59,332 nt of DNA from an uncultured Gammaproteobacteria bacterium (GCA_964422585.1 CAYRBH010000006.1:1-59332); one strand, 5' to 3'. Counted from the first letter of the stretch, positions 1 to 8,212 are shown. Numbers and translations: made by a program. The notes: generated from the letters alone by a model not told the origin.

Positions 1-99
1 ACGTTGTACGCCATTGCCGGCTACGCAAAGTAAAGGTGGAAGACATCTAAAAGTTAGTTCATTAATAAAACACTGTGGGTTGGATGCGGAGGAAGAAAA

Positions 100-237
100 A
101 TGAGAAAGTTACTCACAAGGATTCAGGCTTGGGAAGACCGTACGTGGGCCTATCTCGCAGTTGGTGCAGTTGCCATAGCGTTTGGCATTATCGTCTCTGC
201 GTCTCTCTGGGGCGCAGGAGGAATCTGGAATCAGTGA
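100..237 (+). CDS. Small 45-aa single-TM protein (cassette 0), missed by the ORF track
   Basis: GGAGG at 88-92, ATG at 100, MRKLLTRIQAWEDRTWAYLAVGAVAIAFGIIVSASLWGAGGIWNQ. Confidence 0.55.
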   Translation: MRKLLTRIQAWEDRTWAYLAVGAVAIAFGIIVSASLWGAGGIWNQ

Positions 238-326
238 GAACAGCAAGAGACAGAAGAAACAACATCCAACCTTCTGTCTCCAACCCACAGTGTTGTATCG
301 CAGATTTCTACCTGGCCGTCAACAGC

Positions 327-584
327 GCACAACACCGCGTGTGCGGCTTCGCGTATGGCTTCCGCTCACACCACTCTGATATAGTTCTTTTCACTTCACT
401 GTTCAGAGAGATGAAGAAGCATGTCCTATACACTTAGCTTCTTCGTTCGCTCCAGGCCGCTTCGCCTACATCTGCGCGTGTTCTTTTGCGCTCCATTTCA
501 TTACGCGCATTGCATTTGCCCTCCGTATCCACTTCGGGCATAATGCTATCACGCGCAGACGTCGCATACGCACATACGTTAGAC
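327..584 (+). repeat. attC-like site 1 (258 bp)
   Basis: GCACAAC-ACC-GCGTGTGCG ... CGCATACGC-ACATAC-GTTAGAC. Confidence 0.8.
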
Positions 585-845
585 GCCATTCAAGGTGGGT
601 ACGTATCCTTACACAAAGCTCATGAGTAGAGCTTTCTTTTTGTTTTCAAGGGGTCTTGTCCTCTTTAGTTTAGAGTTGCTTTTGTTAGGATAGAGGCCAA
701 GGAGGGGAACAAAAAGAAAGCGAAAGAAGGTTATTTACTTGAGAAAAGGGTCGTCTCAAGCACCTTGAACACTGCGCCAGCCCCACACCACTTCCCTTTC
801 GTCCAGTAGTGTGGGGACGTTGCACTCTGGCTTGCCCTTCGGGGC

Positions 846-981
846 GCCTAACACCCGACTTGCGGCTACGCTCGGGTTGCACCACTCGCTTCGCCTACAT
901 TCGCACGTGCAGCTTGCGCTCCGTATCCACTTCGCGCTAAGCTTAGCACGTGCGAACGTCGCAAGTCGGTATACGTTGTAC
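846..981 (+). repeat. attC-like site 2 (136 bp)
   Basis: GCCTAAC-AC-CCGACTTGCG ... CGCAAGTCGG-TATAC-GTTGTAC; perfect 10-bp stem. Confidence 0.85.
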
Positions 982-1035
982 GCCATAGTGAAAAGTAAAA
1001 TAGTTTAGTATTTTAAATAATTACCGTTAAAAAAT

Positions 1036-1341
1036 ATGGCACTCAAGGCATGGTTCAAACCACCACTGAGTAAGTTTACACTGATGGTTTTTTTCTTTGT
1101 CTGCTCGGCCTTTTCTGTTTTCTACACTATAGGATGTATAGCAACATGTTCTGCGACTTTCGATAAGATTCTGGTCTCTATGTTTGTGGTCATAAGCGCT
1201 CCTGCAGCATTGATTTTGAAGTTTCCAGGCGTCTTCGGTGAGAGCACCTTGCCTTTATCCCTGTTACTGACCCCCGTTTATTGGTACTTTCTTGCCAGCC
1301 TGATTGTGTGGCTTTTTTCACAACGTAAGAAGTCAAACTAA
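1036..1341 (+). CDS. Hypothetical membrane protein (cassette 2)
   Basis: 101 aa, about 3 hydrophobic segments, fills the cassette. Confidence 0.75.
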   Translation: MALKAWFKPPLSKFTLMVFFFVCSAFSVFYTIGCIATCSATFDKILVSMFVVISAPAALILKFPGVFGESTLPLSLLLTPVYWYFLASLIVWLFSQRKKSN

Positions 1342-1381
1342 TACAAATTACTAGTTCGTTGCCATTACTTTTCACTACAGC

Positions 1382-1634
1382 GCACAACACCTGGTGTGCG
1401 GCTTCGCGTGTGGCTTACGCTCGCCTGTACTACAGAGGGCGAAGCTAGTTAAAGGGTTAGCTTTTAAGGAAGTAGACCTTATGTAAGGTAAGAGCTTCTT
1501 CGCTCGCTCCAGGCCGCTTCGCCTACATTGCTTGTCCGCGTGGATGCGGACTTGTAGCACTCCGTCTCCACTCCGTGCTATCATTATATCGCCCACGCGG
1601 ACTGCGCAACGTCGCATACGCATATACGTTGTAC
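1382..1634 (+). repeat. attC-like site 3 (253 bp, degenerate inner stem)
   Basis: GCACAAC-ACCTGGTGTGCG ... CGCATACGCATATAC-GTTGTAC. Confidence 0.75.
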
Positions 1635-1658
1635 GAAATTCAATAACCTTTTAAGACA

Positions 1659-2057
1659 ATGAAAAAAATCATCTCTACTTCTAAGGCGCCAGCAGCCCCG
1701 AAGTTACTTTCGCAGGCAGTTTTGGAGGATTCGAAATATCATTTGGAAATATCAGGGCAGATTGGACTCAATCCTGAAACAGGAAAGCTCGTTGAAGGTG
1801 GAGTTGAAGCTGAAATGAAACAAGCTCTACAAAATATCGAGGCGATACTTTCTGAAGTGGGCTGGACTTTAGAAAACGTAACAAAAGTACGTTTGTTTCT
1901 GACCGATATGACAGACTACGCTAAAGTCAACGAAATCTATATGGCTAAATTCACCCAAAACTTGCCTGCGAGAATTGCCCTTGCTGTAAAAGCACTTCCT
2001 TTGTCTGCTACTATCGAGATTGAATGTGTGGCTGCTGGTGATATTGCTAAAATGTAA
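1659..2057 (+). CDS. ridA: RidA/YjgF/YER057c family imine deaminase (cassette 3)
   Basis: SQAV, ISGQIG, QALQNIEAIL, LPAR and ALP..IEIEC motifs; conserved Arg present. Confidence 0.9.
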   Translation: MKKIISTSKAPAAPKLLSQAVLEDSKYHLEISGQIGLNPETGKLVEGGVEAEMKQALQNIEAILSEVGWTLENVTKVRLFLTDMTDYAKVNEIYMAKFTQNLPARIALAVKALPLSATIEIECVAAGDIAKM

Positions 2058-2079
2058 CTCGGAGAGGTTATTGAACTTC

Positions 2080-2232
2080 GCACAACACCGCGTATGCGGC
2101 TCAGGTGAGCTTCTTCTTTAGACTTCATTTATTGTAGGTCGCTCACCTTCGGCCTACATTCGCTGCTGGTATCACTCCTACCGTCGTGATATTATACCAG
2201 CAGCGAACGTCGCATACGCGTATACGTTAGGT
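2080..2232 (+). repeat. attC-like site 4 (153 bp)
   Basis: GCACAAC-AC-CGCGTATGCG ... CGCATACGCG-TATAC-GTTAGGT. Confidence 0.85.
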
Positions 2233-2282
2233 GAAATTTTTGAACCCCTAAATGGGGTTTTGTTTTTTGATCAATAGTGAAA

Positions 2283-2328
2283 GGGTCGCATCCTTCTTCG
2301 AGCTTAGCTCTAGGATAGGATGCGACCC
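2283..2328 (-). terminator. Hairpin downstream of the inverted cassette gene
   Basis: GGGTCGCATCCT ... AGGATGCGACCC 12-bp stem. Confidence 0.55.
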
Positions 2329-2340
2329 CCGTGATTGCGG

Positions 2341-2712
2341 CTACTTGCCGTGCTTCTTCTCGAGATTCGCGAGAACGCTCTCGACCTCGTTGACCTCGAT
2401 CGCGTCGCTCTTGGCCGGACGGTACCTGTTGTACTGGTCGACTGCGTCGGCGAGAACGCGGCGCGCCTCGTCGATCGAATTGACTTTGGTCGTCCTCTGG
2501 ACGAGAGGCGCTGACGAATTGAGAACCGTCTTCTGAATGTCGCCGACGACGACGCTGACGTTGTAGATCGGCCCGTTCTTCGAAGGGTTCTCGATGGCGC
2601 TGACCGTATAGGAGATGTTCTTGGAGGCAATCTTCTCCTCCATAGTGTCGCTGCAGGCGACCACCAGAGCCATCAAGAGACAAGGAACCACGAACCGCAT
2701 GAGCTTACCCAC
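2341..2712 (-). CDS. Hypothetical lipoprotein, inverted within cassette 4
   Basis: 123 aa, signal peptide with LVVAC lipobox, SD AAGGAAGG before GTG, GC-rich codons. Confidence 0.75.
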   Translation of the reverse strand: MGKLMRFVVPCLLMALVVACSDTMEEKIASKNISYTVSAIENPSKNGPIYNVSVVVGDIQKTVLNSSAPLVQRTTKVNSIDEARRVLADAVDQYNRYRPAKSDAIEVNEVESVLANLEKKHGK

Positions 2713-2761
2713 TGTTTCCCTTCCTTTCTCGGCATAGCCGAAGTGCGGACGTTAAGAAAAT

Positions 2762-2790
2762 AATATAACATATTTAAAAATTTGTGTCAA
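2762..2790 (-). promoter_or_regulatory. sigma70 promoter for the inverted cassette gene
   Basis: TTGACA-17 bp-TATATT on the minus strand. Confidence 0.7.
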
Positions 2791-2877
2791 TATCTACCAA
2801 AAAACAAAAGCATATTTCTATAGGTTTTATTAATCCTACTAACATAAAAGCTTGTTGAGAGGGGGTTCAAAAACATC

Positions 2878-3087
2878 ACCTAACACCGCGTATACGGTTG
2901 CGCCTTGTCTATCTCGTAGGTTGGAAACTAGATTAGTCCAAGACTTCTAGAAGACAAGGAACTAACTCATGGTTGCTCCACCTACATTCCCTTCCTCACC
3001 CCGCTGCTCTTGCCCTCCGCTCTCGCTTCGGGCATCATTATAGCAGCGGGGTTCGTCGGGAACGTCGCATACGCGTATACGTTAGGT
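2878..3087 (+). repeat. attC-like site 5 (210 bp)
   Basis: ACCTAAC-AC-CGCGTATACG ... CGCATACGCG-TATAC-GTTAGGT. Confidence 0.85.
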
Positions 3088-3105
3088 GAAATTTATCTCC
3101 TCATA

Positions 3106-3645
3106 ATGTCTTCTATCTCTACTAATTGGCATGTTGTAACTGGCGGGCCTTCGTCAGGAAAAACAAAGACTCTAGAGTATCTGTATGTTCTTGGGAACAC
3201 AATTGTCCCTGAAATGGCGAGAATGCTCATTGAAGATGAAATGATGACAGGGAAAACATTACAGGAGATACGACAACATGAGGGGAGTTTTCAAGAGCGC
3301 GTGTTGCAAATGAAAATAGAGACCGAGAACCAATTGGACCCACAAAAACATACATTTCTTGATCGAGGCATTGGAGATAGTATTGCATACTTTCGTCTGA
3401 ATTCTATGGATCCTCAACCTGTTTTTGAAGCATCAAAAAAGAGAATATATAAAACCGTATTTTTACTCGAACAACTTCCTTTTCAATCGGATGAAGCGAG
3501 AACAGAAAATGAAGACTCAGCCCGCCAGATCAGTGATTTGCTCTTTGAAGCGTACTCACAATTAAAATACAAAGTCATTAGAGTTCCCGTAATGCCTGTT
3601 CATGAGCGAGCGGTTTTTATTCTGGCGGAGATAAACATCACCTAA
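3106..3645 (+). CDS. Predicted P-loop ATPase, AAA_28/NadR-kinase-like (cassette 5)
   Basis: VVTGGPSSGKT Walker A and FLDRGIGD. The ORF-track extension to 3010 is attC sequence. Stop codon lies within R''. Confidence 0.85.
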   Translation: MSSISTNWHVVTGGPSSGKTKTLEYLYVLGNTIVPEMARMLIEDEMMTGKTLQEIRQHEGSFQERVLQMKIETENQLDPQKHTFLDRGIGDSIAYFRLNSMDPQPVFEASKKRIYKTVFLLEQLPFQSDEARTENEDSARQISDLLFEAYSQLKYKVIRVPVMPVHERAVFILAEINIT

Positions 3646-4259
3646 CACCGGATTGCCGATTCGCGAGCAAAAAACTTTTATAAAAGTAGCTAGTAAATAA
3701 AGCATCGTATGTTCATATCTGCCTACATAATAATCACTATCCTCATCATAACACTTGTTTTTCTATTACGAATGACAATAAGTACATTGGATGCCGTTCG
3801 TTGGTTAAACTTTAAAATAAATGTACTCGAACGATTGATTTACGAAAAAAAATTCGAACCTACCAAGAATGAGATTGAAAGCGCAGTAGATGCAACACTT
3901 GCTAACGATGTTGAGTACGCAGCAACAGTAAAAATGCTAAATAAATTTATTAAACGTGTTTATCGTAATAACGCCAGCAGTGGTCAAAAAACATTTAGGC
4001 ATATTATTGAGAAGAGGCTTGAAAACCCACAAAGCTACCAGATGGTGGCTATGGGTTTAATTAGTGCATCCGATGTCTATGAGACTACCGATATTTTTAA
4101 AGATGTGGATTTAGAGTCCGCGATCAAAAGATTTAAGGATAAATTTAAGAAGTGATTTTTTTGCTCGCTCATCCAAATTGCTTGTCCACTTAGCTGCTAT
4201 TTGAGATAATTATAGCAGCACGCGGACTGCGCAACTTCGGCAATCCGCATCCGTTAGGT
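3640..4259 (+). repeat. Giant attC-like site 6 (620 bp) enclosing CDS 3709..4155
   Basis: ACCTAAC-AC-CGGATTGCCGA at 3640 pairs with TCGGCAATCCG-CATCC-GTTAGGT ending 4259; no R'-type right half seen in between. Confidence 0.8.
3709..4155 (+). CDS. Hypothetical protein with N-terminal TM helix, nested inside attC site 6
   Basis: 148-aa open frame, AT-rich, flanked by 12-bp IR 3663-3674/4157-4168. Confidence 0.75.
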   Translation: MFISAYIIITILIITLVFLLRMTISTLDAVRWLNFKINVLERLIYEKKFEPTKNEIESAVDATLANDVEYAATVKMLNKFIKRVYRNNASSGQKTFRHIIEKRLENPQSYQMVAMGLISASDVYETTDIFKDVDLESAIKRFKDKFKK

Positions 4260-4300
4260 GAAATTTTTCAAAATCCCTTACTAATTAGGTCTTCATTAAG

Positions 4301-4714
4301 GTGAAAACAAGAGTAGTTGTAACCACCCTCATCGAAAAAGACGACCAGATTCTCTTCGGTAGGAAGAGGGTCAACGTTGGTCCTTATCCAAACACCTGGC
4401 ATTTGATTGGGGGCGGTGTTGAGGACGGAGAACCAGTCATTGAAGCCGTCAAGCGAGAGATCAAAGAAGAAGCCGGTATAGAAGTTGATCACATCACACC
4501 ACTAGGTTTCGACGAAGACTTCGAGCCGAATAAGGACGGCGAGATAACCCATTATATATTCCTAATTTTTCAGGCTCACTACGTCTCTGGTAAGTTACGA
4601 CCTGATGACGACATTGAGCATCTCGAATGGATTCCTAAGAGTAAACTAGCAACACTGGAACTTAATAGGCCAACGATTAAATATTTTAAAAAGGTGGGTT
4701 ATCTCGCCTCGTGA
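4301..4714 (+). CDS. NUDIX hydrolase (cassette 6)
   Basis: Nudix box GGGVEDGEPVIEAVKREIKEEAG. Confidence 0.9.
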   Translation: MKTRVVVTTLIEKDDQILFGRKRVNVGPYPNTWHLIGGGVEDGEPVIEAVKREIKEEAGIEVDHITPLGFDEDFEPNKDGEITHYIFLIFQAHYVSGKLRPDDDIEHLEWIPKSKLATLELNRPTIKYFKKVGYLAS

Positions 4715-4744
4715 CTATTCAATGGAAGGATTTTGAAAAACATC

Positions 4745-4934
4745 ACCTAACACCGCGTATGCGGTTGCGCCTTGTCTATCTCGTAGTCTCAATTCTAGAT
4801 TAGTTCAAGACTTCTAGAAGACAGGGAACTACTCATGGTGGCTCCACCTACATTCGTGCATGCAGCTTGCGCTCCGTATCCACTTCGCGCTAAGCTTAGC
4901 ATGCACGAACGTCGCATACGCGTATACGTTAGGT
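4745..4934 (+). repeat. attC-like site 7 (190 bp)
   Basis: ACCTAAC-AC-CGCGTATGCG ... CGCATACGCG-TATAC-GTTAGGT. Confidence 0.85.
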
Positions 4935-4952
4935 GAAATAATAAAAAATCAA

Positions 4953-5591
4953 ATGATTTTAGTAGAAATAATAATTTCTTTAATTTCTTCACTCGCTGCA
5001 ATACTGATATCTCTTTGGATTGATAGATTGCGACTTCCTAAATTATCTATTAAGGCTAGCGAAAGTGCTAACTCTGACAATATATATCCTTCGGGTCACC
5101 CGCACGCTAACGAACGATGGAAATTTTTTAGGGTTTCTGTTTCTAATAATTCTTTTTCTGGTTTATTTCGATGGATACCCCGCCAAACAGCTGAGAACTG
5201 TAGAGCAAAAATAGAGATTTATGAATCTAAGGACTCATCGCCCCTGTTTACTTTTGATGGTCGATGGGCATCAACGCCAGAAATTCCTCACATTCCTTCA
5301 CAAGCAATAGTTAAGTTATTTCACCCGGATCCAGTAACCATTGCGGTCGAGGAAAAAGAATACCTGGATGTTATTGTCAAAGCCGAAATTGATAACGATG
5401 CTTATGGCTGGAATAATGAAGCCTACATACACAACTGGAGAAACCCTAGCTATAAACTTGGCATTGGAGAATATAAAGTTAAAATAACCATTTCAACTCA
5501 AAACGGAAAATCGTTCGTTAGCGTGCTCGACTTAGCAGTTCGAAAAAAGACTGAAGACACCATACTTAAAAATAACAGCTTGTCGGCTTGA
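4953..5591 (+). CDS. Hypothetical protein with N-terminal membrane anchor (cassette 7)
   Basis: 212 aa from ATG 4953; the upstream ORF-track extension is attC sequence. Confidence 0.75.
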   Translation: MILVEIIISLISSLAAILISLWIDRLRLPKLSIKASESANSDNIYPSGHPHANERWKFFRVSVSNNSFSGLFRWIPRQTAENCRAKIEIYESKDSSPLFTFDGRWASTPEIPHIPSQAIVKLFHPDPVTIAVEEKEYLDVIVKAEIDNDAYGWNNEAYIHNWRNPSYKLGIGEYKVKITISTQNGKSFVSVLDLAVRKKTEDTILKNNSLSA

Positions 5592-5605
5592 TTTTTTATT
5601 ACATC

Positions 5606-6326
5606 ACCTAACACCGGATATCCGGCTTCGCCAAAAAATATAAACAATTTTATTCCAAAGATATGAAAAAAATATTAATTATTCCACTATTCATTCTCAT
5701 TCTGGGCGGCTGTTCAAATCAGAACGCAAAAATTGACGAACAAAACAAAAAGATTGATGAGTTGAATAACAAAGTCACAGAATTAACTGCATCCAATAGT
5801 AAAAGTGACTTAGATCTTCAAGCTAAGTGTGCCACCCAAGCTCAAAAGGCTTTCGAAGACTTTAAAAAAAGTTACGCAGACTCACAATATTATTCGTATG
5901 CGCAAGAAAGCCACTATAACAAAACGTATGACAGGTGTTTTGTGCTAGTATCTTATTTAGTGAACTCTGGTCCTGTCTATAACGGAAAACCGTTCAGGCA
6001 AGCAACAAATGGAGAAGATCTATTGGATGCATACGGTAATAGAGATTTAGCTTCTTGCGAAATATTTGGCAACGACATACCAAACAACCAAACATGTATT
6101 GTAGAAGGAAATGGCGCAACCTATAAAGACTACACCGATTACGTCGTTCCGAGGCTAGAGTTGCCGCCCCAAAAATAGTGTTAGCAGAAAAAATAAAATT
6201 GTTTATATTTTTGGCTCGCGCAAATTGCTTGTCTGCTTAGGCGGTGGGTAGCGCTCCGTTGGGCTTCGCGCTACAATTATACCGCCACGCAGACTGCGCA
6301 ACTTCGGATATCCGCCTATGTTGTAC
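5606..6326 (+). repeat. Giant attC-like site 8 (721 bp) enclosing CDS 5663..6178
   Basis: ACCTAAC-AC-CGGATATCCG at 5606 pairs with CGGATATCCG-CCTAT-GTTGTAC ending 6326. Confidence 0.8.
5663..6178 (+). CDS. Hypothetical lipoprotein, nested inside attC site 8
   Basis: MKKILIIPLFILILGGC lipobox followed by a coiled coil; 171 aa; flanked by 24/25-bp IR. Confidence 0.8.
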   Translation: MKKILIIPLFILILGGCSNQNAKIDEQNKKIDELNNKVTELTASNSKSDLDLQAKCATQAQKAFEDFKKSYADSQYYSYAQESHYNKTYDRCFVLVSYLVNSGPVYNGKPFRQATNGEDLLDAYGNRDLASCEIFGNDIPNNQTCIVEGNGATYKDYTDYVVPRLELPPQK

Positions 6327-6374
6327 GAAATTGGCTTTCCTTAGATTATATATTAGTAAATTAACATCTTTTCT

Positions 6375-6608
6375 ATGACACTTGCAAAAATAATAGCTCT
6401 GAGCGGGATCATCCTCTTTATAGCAGGGCAAGTATTTGCTAACGTTATTCATCCTAATACCAGTGGTGGCGCTGAATTTGCAGGACTCGTCTTCCTTGTA
6501 GCCTTTTATGGCGGCATTGCACTTTTCATTATTGGCGCGATGATAGGTGTTTACAAAAAACCACAAGGTCAGCGCAATCAAAAAAAGGAACCAACTCAAC
6601 AGAACTAG
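6375..6608 (+). CDS. Small 2-TM membrane protein (cassette 8)
   Basis: 77 aa, two hydrophobic helices, basic tail, fills the cassette. Confidence 0.7.
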   Translation: MTLAKIIALSGIILFIAGQVFANVIHPNTSGGAEFAGLVFLVAFYGGIALFIIGAMIGVYKKPQGQRNQKKEPTQQN

Positions 6609-6630
6609 AAACGAACGGAAAGCCAACTTC

Positions 6631-6811
6631 GCACAACACCGGATATGCGGTTGCGCGAGGCTTTGAGAGGGTGGTAGACTAGATACTGTTCTTACACTAT
6701 CTAGAAGTATAGGGATTTCTCATGGGGCTCCACCTACATTTGCGGGTGGTAGCGCTCCTCCGTCGCGGGATCATACCACCCGCAAACGTCGCACATCCGT
6801 ATACGTTAGGT
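6631..6811 (+). repeat. attC-like site 9 (181 bp)
   Basis: GCACAAC-AC-CGGATATGCG ... CGCACATCCG-TATAC-GTTAGGT. Confidence 0.85.
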
Positions 6812-6837
6812 GAAATAAGTTATTTGTTTGTTAGGCA

Positions 6838-7335
6838 ATGAACTTAGTAGCATACAACCCAGAGTGGGAGAAAATTTTTCTGACAGAGAAGGAAACAATC
6901 GCTCAAGCTCTCGGCAATGACTGCCTCGAAATTGAACATATAGGTAGTACAGCCATTCCTGGTATTCTTTCAAAACCAATTGTTGATATAGCTGTACGCA
7001 TACCCTCTCTCAAGGCCAGCGAAAAATACTTAGCCCCTCTTCAGGCTATAGGGTATACCTACTTTCCAGAACGATCATCTGTTGAGCGAATGTTCTTAGC
7101 GAAAGGAGTTCCTCCAACGCTTCACTTATCACTGACGGAGTCAGAAAAATTTTCTTATTGGAAACGACAAATACTTTTTCGAGATTACTTACGCTCACAT
7201 GCAGATATTGCCAAAGAATACGAAATACTTAAAGCAAATCTTATTCAAAAATATCCGGATATTAGTCAGGGTTATTCTGATGGGAAAGGCGAATTTGTTA
7301 AAAAAGTTCTTTCTCTCACAGAAACAAACAAATAA
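6838..7335 (+). CDS. GrpB/UPF0157 family protein (cassette 9)
   Basis: YNPEW, IEHIGSTAIPG..SKPIVDI, LFRDYLR and Y..LK..L..Y..GK motifs. Confidence 0.9.
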   Translation: MNLVAYNPEWEKIFLTEKETIAQALGNDCLEIEHIGSTAIPGILSKPIVDIAVRIPSLKASEKYLAPLQAIGYTYFPERSSVERMFLAKGVPPTLHLSLTESEKFSYWKRQILFRDYLRSHADIAKEYEILKANLIQKYPDISQGYSDGKGEFVKKVLSLTETNK

Positions 7336-7343
7336 CTTACATC

Positions 7344-7363
7344 ACCTAACACCGCGTATGCGG
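7344..7363 (+). repeat. Left half only of attC-like site 10 (array end)
   Basis: ACCTAACACCGCGTATGCGG, then 7 bp and the stop of a convergent host gene; no matching right half seen. Confidence 0.75.
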
Positions 7364-7370
7364 CGCTGAT

Positions 7371-8159
7371 CTACTTATACATAACCAGTCCAACCGCTCC
7401 TCCATCAGCAGCAGACCCTGTCCAATCATGTATCGCACTCATTAAGGTAGCAGATGAGTACACATAATCAGCGCCGTGCTTTGTACCCGGGTCATTGGTA
7501 ATGAATGTACCGTCCGCCCTATAGCCTTTGATAACCAGCATGTGATAGATAGGTCCTGGAGCCGTGAAATACGGATTGCCTAATGCACGACCAGCTGTTG
7601 GTACTATCACTGGCAAACCCTTTCGTAATTCTTGTTTGATAGCATCAATGGTCAACGGATCAATAATCTGCACTCTGTAGGGATACTGAGCGGCAGCAAG
7701 ATCCTTAACTTTCGCGATCGGCAGATCATTGTGTCCGCCCCAATTCTTAATCTGCCAAGCGACCTGCGCGTCGATAGCATCTTTCATCTGCTGCGCTGAG
7801 AGTGTCGCGCCACGCAAATAATAATCGACCATGATAATGGAGGCCTCTTCACAGGCATTCTCATACGGTTCGCTCCAATCGCCGAATGGCGCCTGTGCAC
7901 GGAACGGCACCGCTAAATTAATGGCGTTCGGTGCTGGTTTCTCAACCGGCGGCTTCTGCTCTGGAGTTACTGTAGCCTGAGAATTCTTGGCCGAAGGAGG
8001 GGGTACCGGAGGATTCGGCTTTGCTGGTTCTACAACGGGTACGGTTGAGGTCGCGAATGTAGCGAAAGGCTCAGGCGACGGAATAACCGCCTGGGGCATC
8101 GTAGTACAGCCGGCAAGCAGGGCAAACACCGCTACCAGTAAACTATATCGTTTCTTCAT
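7371..8159 (-). CDS. C39-like peptidase lipoprotein
   Basis: LLAGC lipobox; VPFRAQAP..NACEEAS, HMLVIKGY and TNDPG motifs. Confidence 0.8.
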   Translation of the reverse strand: MKKRYSLLVAVFALLAGCTTMPQAVIPSPEPFATFATSTVPVVEPAKPNPPVPPPSAKNSQATVTPEQKPPVEKPAPNAINLAVPFRAQAPFGDWSEPYENACEEASIIMVDYYLRGATLSAQQMKDAIDAQVAWQIKNWGGHNDLPIAKVKDLAAAQYPYRVQIIDPLTIDAIKQELRKGLPVIVPTAGRALGNPYFTAPGPIYHMLVIKGYRADGTFITNDPGTKHGADYVYSSATLMSAIHDWTGSAADGGAVGLVMYK

Positions 8160-8212
8160 GCGACCATGATAGCAATATTCGGCATTCTCGCAAAGCATAG
8201 CGCCTGCGAGGC

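Follow-up and report, generated by a model that had tools for sequence, protein, structure and literature searches.

The stretch of DNA analysed here (GCA_964422585.1 CAYRBH010000006.1:1-59332; 59,332 nucleotides (nt), hereafter the window, with coordinates counted from its first letter) holds at 1-7365 the distal part of an integron-like cassette array, whose upstream part lies beyond the left end of the window. Eight of its ten cassettes are bounded by a long inverted repeat of their own, which we read, with a probability of roughly 0.6, as the conserved outer helix (the "stalk") of an extended attC-type recombination site. This extended own-end stem would be a new variant of integron cassette architecture, with a function that we infer from comparison. 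A first-pass annotation of the same DNA had placed the extended stem and its "bulge" in the recombination substrate and had explained both as a footprint of cassette genesis; the comparisons described below support the former part of that interpretation and not the latter.

Ten cassette starts (the G of GTT at 3, 578, 975, 1628, 2226, 3081, 4253, 4928, 6320 and 6805) and ten R'' ends (the C of AAC at 333, 852, 1388, 2086, 2884, 3646, 4751, 5612, 6637 and 7350) were located, and the R'' (RYYYAAC) and R' (GTTRRRY) cores, ten of each, lie in register along this part of the window, a cassette unit beginning at the GTT of an R' box and extending to the G of the R' that follows it. The private extended repeat that the first-pass annotation had assigned to nearly every cassette was recovered in all eight GTT...AAC pairs that it listed, with arms of 20-28 nt and 2-3 mismatches; its extents hold to within 2-3 nt, the pair 2226-2249/2860-2884 now being 2226-2248/2862-2884 and the 26-nt arms of the NUDIX cassette (4253-4278/4726-4751) now 24 nt. 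Positions 1-9 of the repeat are the R box, positions 10-11 are never paired on the top strand (the mismatch reported there was found again in the own-end pairings), position 12 is T, and the private run begins at position 13. The first 12 nt are conserved in the family (GTTRNRYG-AAAT or -CCAT versus ACATC/ACAGC-RYNYAAC), and the private part, 8-16 nt long, has no mismatch in any of the eight cassettes. In three cassettes the repeat covers the stop or last codons, as had also been noticed (open reading frames (ORFs) ending at 3645, 5591 and 7335).

Chance is excluded as the origin of these repeats by four comparisons: shuffled sequences seldom matched as well over the private part in fixed register (P of 5e-5 to 2.5e-4 per cassette), which had been named as the control that could undo the observation; the private arm and its reverse complement are each single-copy within the 59 kb for 7/8 cassettes (in the eighth, cassette 3081, the 8-nt arm occurs three times on the same strand and its reverse complement once); own ends share 18-26 matching bases in an all-pairs matrix, against 3-16 for ends from different cassettes; and anchored GTT...AAC repeats score 15-23 in the array and at most 10 in reversed-sequence and chromosomal controls. 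The private arms were also considered as the split stem of the gene's own terminator, a candidate ruled out by their AT-rich composition, the absence of T runs after them and the lack of enrichment. As to the two other cassettes, 578-852 has the conserved core alone with no private extension, and 3-333 shows a weak GC-rich outer pair (19 nt, 4 mismatches) and a strong inner inverted block (65-84/279-298, 19/20) around a small ORF (100-237), from which it follows that the stalk can break off and resume further inward.

The two strands of the repeat are not equivalent. Position 11 is A in the left arm and G in the reverse complement of the right arm (40/40 and 48/51 cassettes), giving G.T on the bottom strand and A.C on the top. 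At position 10 the bottom strand has T.T or G.T, and of the mismatches within the first, conserved 12 nt, 57 read as G.T on the bottom strand and 8 do so on the top. With a cassette's own flanks joined, as in a circle, the bottom strand is predicted (DNA parameters) to form a single unbroken stem through stalk, R and L boxes, which is favoured over the array form by 9-13 kcal/mol in six of seven cassettes (maximum 12.9) and by 2.7 kcal/mol in the seventh, and over the top strand by 3-9 kcal/mol. Neighbours in the array form do not match past the conserved box; the stalk forms from a cassette's own ends only, and would therefore exist in the excised circle. The R cores likewise pair better with their own partner than with the array partner (better in 18, equal in 4, worse in 1), the classical signature of a circular intermediate with crossover in GTT. 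The R boxes across an array-form site are chimeric, and a search for R''/R' complementarity across the site loses true sites.

The attC-like sites between the cassettes measure 136-258 nt, or 620-721 nt where an ORF is nested, and share the order R'', AC, L'' (10-11 bp), variable hairpin A, CCTACATT, hairpin B, AACGT, L', 5-nt spacer and R'. The L boxes pair in a clean helix of 10-11 bp whose variants are compensated (CGCGTATGCG / CGGATTGCCG / CGGATATCCG), indicating that structure is kept over sequence, and both strands of the sites fold far better than shuffles (z of -6.6 and -6.8). No bulged bases occur in the L stem of the predicted folds, where the asymmetry comes from the 2-against-5 nt spacer and the G.T/A.C at position 11. 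Rfam covariance models found only tRNAs at gathering score in the window, and nothing up to E=1 in 1-7500. Two of the sites (3640-4259 and 5606-6326) hold a whole ORF, making a cassette with two genes split by the 5' half of the recombination site; the same layout, an ORF in hairpin A, was seen at locus L036 (953-1421) of the Candidate Phyla Radiation (CPR; this and other L numbers are our locus handles).

A degenerate pattern of the 3' end of the site, scanned against species-representative genomes, gave 57 loci, nearly all in metagenome-assembled genomes of Patescibacteria, with a few DPANN or methanogen bins, and the cassette system appears widespread in Patescibacteria. Two related loci read by eye showed the same bracket, sometimes extended by more inverted blocks to ~45-80 bp. 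When related cassettes were delimited by the conserved 12-mers only, leaving the private part unused, 70 cassettes were obtained (57 CPR loci plus the window), and the private extension scored at least 8 in 43 of them, the 95th percentile for other cassettes' ends being 3. Across the 61 non-redundant cassettes, which come from many genomes, own-end pairing amounts to 80-90% at positions 13-19 and 69-74% at positions 20-23, and is down to background (~30%) by positions 27-29; pairing with other cassettes' ends is 26-39% at positions 13-23, and all four bases are present at every paired position from 13 to 24. On this comparison the outer repeat is a helix of defined length, kept by covariation and not by sequence. 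Also seen were "empty" cassettes of 37-58 nt, in which a short stem-loop joins the R' box to the R'' box and no ORF is present (L004 6146-6182, and L027 6415-6472 and 7072-7129, all in minus-strand-oriented coordinates; L036 906-953), which are candidate starting material for new cassettes.

The arms do not depend on the cargo. Within the genome set, three arm families (ATGCTTTTCTTTTT, AGCCAGAAATTTCT and AATAAAAAGCC) are common to cassettes whose ORFs lack BLASTP similarity, and a metagenome scan for one of these left arms (AGCCAGAAATTTCT) found at least 120 loci (L064-L183), including, among the matches listed, at least 74 complete cassettes of 334-1198 nt with the matching right arm. In these cassettes one arm pair surrounds at least 51 unrelated ORF clusters, together with a second inverted block (TTTTTTGGCAATTT / AAATTGCCAAAAAA), a short trailer and a shared leader with an extended -10 box (TGTGATATAAT) that sits inside the loop. 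The same attC lies downstream in ~70% among the matches listed, and the upstream sequence is diverse. Stalk and attC thus form a "vehicle" inherited together across genomes and carrying many ORFs; in the window, where no two cassettes share a vehicle, the arms look private for that reason. Many ORFs of the large vehicle family (for example L096 50-439 and L169 91-468) start M-x-x-P-E and are acidic or lysine-rich, and the conserved DNA begins directly after the stop codon. Two direct TTCGCATAATA-like motifs, resembling the direct-repeat recombinase binding sites of attI, precede the GTT upstream of many first cassettes (L074, L083, L089, L091, L128 and L132).

The comparison of cassette genes with homologues, proposed earlier as a way of telling the native end from the copied one, was carried out for GrpB, whose homologues ~60% identical to the window protein were traced to their contigs. 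The GrpB cassette of L184-L187 has arms AAATTATTTGTAAAATT, paired 17/17 and both outside the ORF, and the window stem is AAGTTATTTGTTTGTT. The first 11 nt of the arms are homologous between the window and its relatives, with a G/A difference compensated in both arms, and the distal 5-6 nt of the window stem differ from the relatives, again in both arms. The window cassette falls short of its relatives by ~20 nt at the 3' end and by ~10 nt in the 5' untranslated region (UTR); its ORF ends inside the arm because the 3' end was shortened, fusing ORF to arm, and such shortening would explain the stop codons found inside arms of the window. That the arms stay complementary in diverged GrpB cassettes indicates a helix long maintained and not a decaying scar. 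The cassette has identical arms and downstream L'' in L184, L185 and L186, with different upstream sites and downstream neighbours, and in L186 it comes first after a divergent recombinase gene; as it keeps its downstream site in different arrays, the mobile unit is of integron type and not a repeat-bounded transposon. Two GrpB genes in operon-like settings (L188 1985-2640 and L190 474-1110) still carry a 5' UTR that resembles the left arm (GAAATAAGTTATTTGTAA...), along with a decayed R' box; their right arm and attC are gone, and they look like former cassettes fixed in the chromosome and not like ancestral loci. The comparison thus yielded homologous, paired arms in the relatives, and did not settle which end is native, L188 and L190 being former cassettes.

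A tyrosine recombinase gene lies beside the array, transcribed divergently from it, in 10 of the 57 loci (L009, L020, L026, L027, L029, L030, L033, L035, L038 and L042), and also in L186 and L187. The recombinases of the ten loci score best with the NCBIfam model 'XerA / integron integrase'. Against TIGR02249, the integron-integrase model, they give a match split in two and below its cut-off, and they are 33-36% identical to IntI1 but ~31+11 residues short. The missing residues fall in the unmatched TIGR02249 positions ~179-237, a stretch which we take to be the IntI-specific additional domain. The recombinases of L186 and L187 are known as 216-aa Phage_integrase (Pfam) genes only, and both loci have an attI-like junction (...TTCGCATATCCCCTA|GTTAGGCG) beside the divergent gene. 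Judged from these alignments, the system appears to work like an integron yet to lack one defining feature of the family, the IntI-specific domain.

The extended site consists of an R'/R'' helix of 8-9 bp, the fixed 2-nt imperfection at positions 10-11 and a stalk of ~12-16 bp, free in sequence and constrained in pairing, to which additional blocks are sometimes added for a length of up to 45-80 bp. The stalk would be part of the recombination substrate, as it continues the R'/R'' helix, covaries in the 61 cassettes, has a defined length and keeps the invariant G.T/A.C position. With the crossover in GTT, one stalk strand opens the cassette on its 5' side and the other directly precedes the cassette's own R'', so that the stalk would form in the excised circle, or when the whole cassette is single-stranded, adding a predicted ~9-13 kcal/mol to the folded bottom strand. 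The free cassette would then be a better-folded, strand-defined integration substrate for an IntI-like recombinase devoid of the IntI-specific domain, and in the array, where neighbouring ends mismatch and no stalk forms, excision may be disfavoured; selection on this pairing would be the maintaining force.

Several points weigh against this proposal. About one third of the automatically delimited cassettes have no extension, and many of these units are merged, mispaired or carry an extra GC-rich module between arm and R'', while some may truly have no stalk. The large arm family shows 57 uncompensated mismatches over 51 distinct cassettes, and copying accounts more readily than step-by-step compensation for the coordinated multi-nucleotide arm differences (in GrpB, and GCCGATT versus GCCTCT in L053 and L054). 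A cassette leaving the array would need to be excised with no stalk, and the selective value is therefore not self-evident. A scan of metagenome contigs for the GC-rich attC subfamily of the window gave 0 matches, no IntI-type gene is visible in the window, the array continuing past the window start, where its recombinase gene, attI site and cassette promoter would lie, and the effect of the stalk on recombination is itself deduced from sequence.

The claim that each gene's capture involved synthesis of one cassette end on the other as template (fold-back or template switch), leaving a gene-specific scar, is now very unlikely. It would fit the uniqueness of every arm within the window, the three cassettes in which the right arm overlaps coding sequence and the 5' UTR mirrors codons, and the distal 5 nt of the GrpB stem, which pair the UTR with codons homologous to the C-terminal codons of the relatives; it is contradicted by the same arms, leader, trailer and attC around at least 51 unrelated ORF clusters, by the arm families common to unrelated ORFs in the genomes, by the uniform helix length, and by the maintenance seen in GrpB, where the arm of the relatives lies outside the ORF, is homologous to the window arm, and stays paired across ~40% protein divergence, over which a neutral scar would have decayed. 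Copying that recurs is doubtful rather than very unlikely: each time the bottom strand folds, for instance in replicative resolution or while the second strand of the circle is made, one arm would serve to copy or correct its partner by intrastrand template switching or hairpin mismatch correction, which would keep the arms perfect and could extend them into new adjoining sequence, function perhaps being secondary. Mismatch-free private parts in the window and in most extensions of the relatives, block-wise coordinated differences (TTGTT/AACAA versus AAAATT/AATTTT in GrpB, and those of L053 and L054) and the similar bracketing of ORFs nested in hairpin A speak in favour of such homogenisation; however, the analysis met no direct trace of copying, many members of the large family retain single mismatches that are uncompensated, and a helix ending uniformly near position 26 fits a length constraint better than open-ended copying. 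Templated repair or extension possibly serves as a maintenance mechanism, as recurrent copying and not as a capture event. An active form of this idea, in which each folded single-stranded passage copies one end from the other, so that the arms stay perfect and the helix grows into adjoining sequence, would also, taken with the empty hairpin cassettes and the single vehicle of more than 50 unrelated ORFs, be a route of cassette birth, and we hold it to be rather improbable; if true, an ORF would enter the loop of an existing hairpin vehicle and have the stem re-templated around it, a long-missing step of integron biology.

A function in RNA, with the arms pairing the 5' and 3' UTRs of the cassette mRNA (affecting stability, processing or translation), is if anything less probable than the capture scar. 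The left arm does make up most or all of the 5' UTR in the compact cassettes of the window, and -10-like boxes in some attC hairpin-B loops could start transcripts upstream of R'; against this, at the conserved imperfections the bottom strand has G.T where the mRNA-sense strand has A.C and A.A, folding of the top strand is 3-9 kcal/mol less favourable, and promoter-like sites are not enriched in the array. The stem around inverted genes (2226-2884; L054 1379-2897) and the extended -10 promoter inside the loop of the large vehicle family, which would produce its own mRNA lacking the left arm, favour a role at the level of DNA. The least probable alternative, to the point of being hardly credible, is that of transposon-like elements with the arms as terminal inverted repeats, inserted in a repeated hairpin target. 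Inverted repeats do bound each unit and their first 12 nt are conserved, yet the outer parts vary between units, unlike transposase binding sites, no transposase or target-site duplication is present, and the related arrays begin at an attI-like site beside the divergent tyrosine recombinase. Cargo and arms are linked to the interior of the downstream attC and not to the upstream one, and the transposon or miniature inverted-repeat transposable element reading was rejected on this linkage.

Table 1 Cassette arms, attC-like sites and nested reading frames of the array, in window coordinates.
Feature	Coordinates	Strand	Details
Left arm, cassette 975-1388	975..998	+	R' core GTTGTACG, CCAT, private AGTGAAAAGTAA; pairs with 1365-1388, 24 nt, 3 mismatches; shuffle P=5e-5
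Right arm, cassette 975-1388	1365..1388	+	Ends in R'' core CGCACAAC
Left arm, RidA cassette	1628..1649	+	Pairs with 2065-2086, 22 nt, 2 mismatches
Right arm, RidA cassette	2065..2086	+	Starts 7 nt past the stop codon
Left arm, cassette 2226-2884	2226..2248	+	Minus-strand ORF; pairs with 2862-2884, 23 nt, 2 mismatches; stem present despite inverted gene
Right arm, cassette 2226-2884	2862..2884	+	Pairs with 2226-2248
Left arm, AAA_28 cassette	3081..3100	+	Pairs with 3627-3646, 20 nt, 2 mismatches
Right arm, AAA_28 cassette	3627..3646	+	ORF runs through the arm and stops at TAA inside R'' (CCTAAC)
Left arm, NUDIX cassette	4253..4276	+	Pairs with 4728-4751, 24 nt, 2 mismatches
Right arm, NUDIX cassette	4728..4751	+	Pairs with 4253-4276
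Left arm, cassette 4928-5612	4928..4952	+	Whole 5' UTR, ATG at 4953; pairs with 5588-5612, 25 nt, 2 mismatches
Right arm, cassette 4928-5612	5588..5612	+	Overlaps stop codon 5589-5591
Left arm, cassette 6320-6637	6320..6340	+	Pairs with 6617-6637, 21 nt, 2 mismatches
Right arm, cassette 6320-6637	6617..6637	+	Pairs with 6320-6340
Left arm, GrpB cassette (28 nt)	6805..6832	+	26/28 nt with 7323-7350; homologous to L184/L186 left arm over AA(G/A)TTATTTGT
Right arm, GrpB cassette	7323..7350	+	Spans last 3 codons and stop
Example attC-like site	2080..2232	+	R'', AC, L'' (10 bp), hairpin A, CCTACATT, hairpin B, AACGT, L', TATAC, R'
Other attC-like sites	327-584, 846-981, 1382-1634, 2878-3087, 3640-4259, 4745-4934, 5606-6326, 6631-6811	+	
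ORF 3709-4155, nested in hairpin A of attC 3640-4259	3663..4168	+	Private stem 3663-3674/4157-4168
ORF 5663-6178, nested in hairpin A of attC 5606-6326	5630..6215	+	Private stem 5630-5654/6192-6215; 21/21 match
Final attC, truncated after L'' (array end)	7344..7365	+	

The cargo of the array includes RidA, an AAA_28 ATPase, NUDIX and GrpB proteins, and several further ORFs with no family; look-ups of two of the cassette proteins for exact matches returned none. Cassette 2226-2884 carries a GC-rich ORF on the opposite strand (2341-2712), unlike the AT-rich same-strand cargo of the other cassettes, with its own near-consensus promoter (TTGACA-17-TATATT with TG, 2790-2762). The 5' UTR of ORF 4953-5591 is formed entirely by the left arm and has no visible Shine-Dalgarno sequence, and in several other cassettes the gap from arm to ATG is only 5-9 nt. 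The distal end of the array has no complete attC, and a minus-strand gene for a Peptidase_C39_2 lipoprotein (7371-8198) follows directly after the final truncated site. The remainder of the window is chromosome, with ~50% G+C and 7 tRNA genes. The closest named relatives of its polynucleotide phosphorylase (PNPase) are Patescibacteria, near Candidatus Komeilibacteria, and we read the host of the array as a Patescibacteria (CPR) bacterium; in a relative with 90% identical PNPase the contig stops short of the array.

The folded site would be ~15 bp longer than a textbook attC, with the extra helix present only in the free cassette. Excised and arrayed cassettes would thus differ physically in a simple way, which could bias the system toward capture and array stability, and the stalk suggests how a recombinase devoid of the IntI-specific domain might still use folded sites. 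Vehicles with dozens of unrelated ORFs, together with the empty hairpin cassettes, are concrete sequences bearing on cassette formation. Literature searches on Patescibacteria/CPR integrons or extended cassette-end pairing returned nothing relevant. Integron recombination needs a folded single-stranded attC, whose R box is treated as 7 bp, and the origin of cassettes is not known (PMC5371416).

For comparison with known integrons, class 1 arrays were obtained from plasmids via the attI1 sequence, and the own ends of ~13 different cassettes were measured from junctions read by eye and by a boundary-free anchored scan. Own-end complementarity is 7-8 nt in dfrA1, gcuC, blaIMP-1, aac(6')-IIc and arr-3 (by eye) and in dfrA17 and lnu(F) (inferred from anchored-scan scores <9), 9 nt in blaOXA-1, 11 nt in aadA5, 12 nt in aadB, aacA4 and aadA22, and at most 16 nt with one mismatch, in catB3. 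A modest extension is therefore found in some classical cassettes, and 20-28 nt in nearly every cassette is absent there; the suspicion that such lengths might be ordinary in known integrons, raised by the first-pass annotation against itself, was not borne out by these class 1 cassettes (7-12 nt, maximum 16).

In other respects the array resembles integron cassettes and their attC sites: it is a unidirectional array whose ORFs are small, mostly without promoters and each trailed by an imperfect palindrome (outer R''/R' and inner L''/L' boxes), with crossover in GTT, a cassette 5' end that complements its own R'', a bottom strand that folds better, and, in the related arrays, an attI-like site and a divergent tyrosine recombinase at the head. 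It differs in the length of own-end complementarity (20-28 nt or more), in a conserved box of 12 nt with the fixed G.T/A.C position, in sites that are three-way structures of 136-258 nt instead of hairpins of 57-141 nt, in an L stem with a 2-against-5 nt asymmetric spacer and no obvious extrahelical bases, in the ORFs that can lie inside the site, and in neighbouring recombinases that do not have the IntI-specific insertion. Sedentary chromosomal integrons, such as that with the Vibrio cholerae repeats, have species-specific attC families; here too one site family occurs on many unrelated ORFs, implying host-linked cassette making, but the shared unit adds both ORF flanks (stalk arms and second inverted block) and, in one family, a leader carrying its own promoter.

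Xer/dif-type tyrosine recombination, which includes XerA and the pdif modules of Acinetobacter plasmids, is a further known system close to this one. The recombinases beside the related arrays resemble that system in fitting the 'XerA / integron integrase' model best and having no IntI insertion, as do the genes lying between inverted recombinase sites; unlike in Xer/dif, the array showed no duplex site of 28 bp with the 11-6-11 layout, its sites being palindromes that fold and have R and L boxes, and each array unit carries one site, all in the same direction. Quasipalindrome correction and template-switch mutation can give rise to hairpin stems and make them perfect, and they would yield perfect arms, abrupt ends and simultaneous changes in both arms, as in the GrpB stem; these processes are known where tens of bases separate the arms, whereas the arms in the array lie 300-1500 nt apart, no event was observed, and only in the folded circle would the two arms become adjacent.

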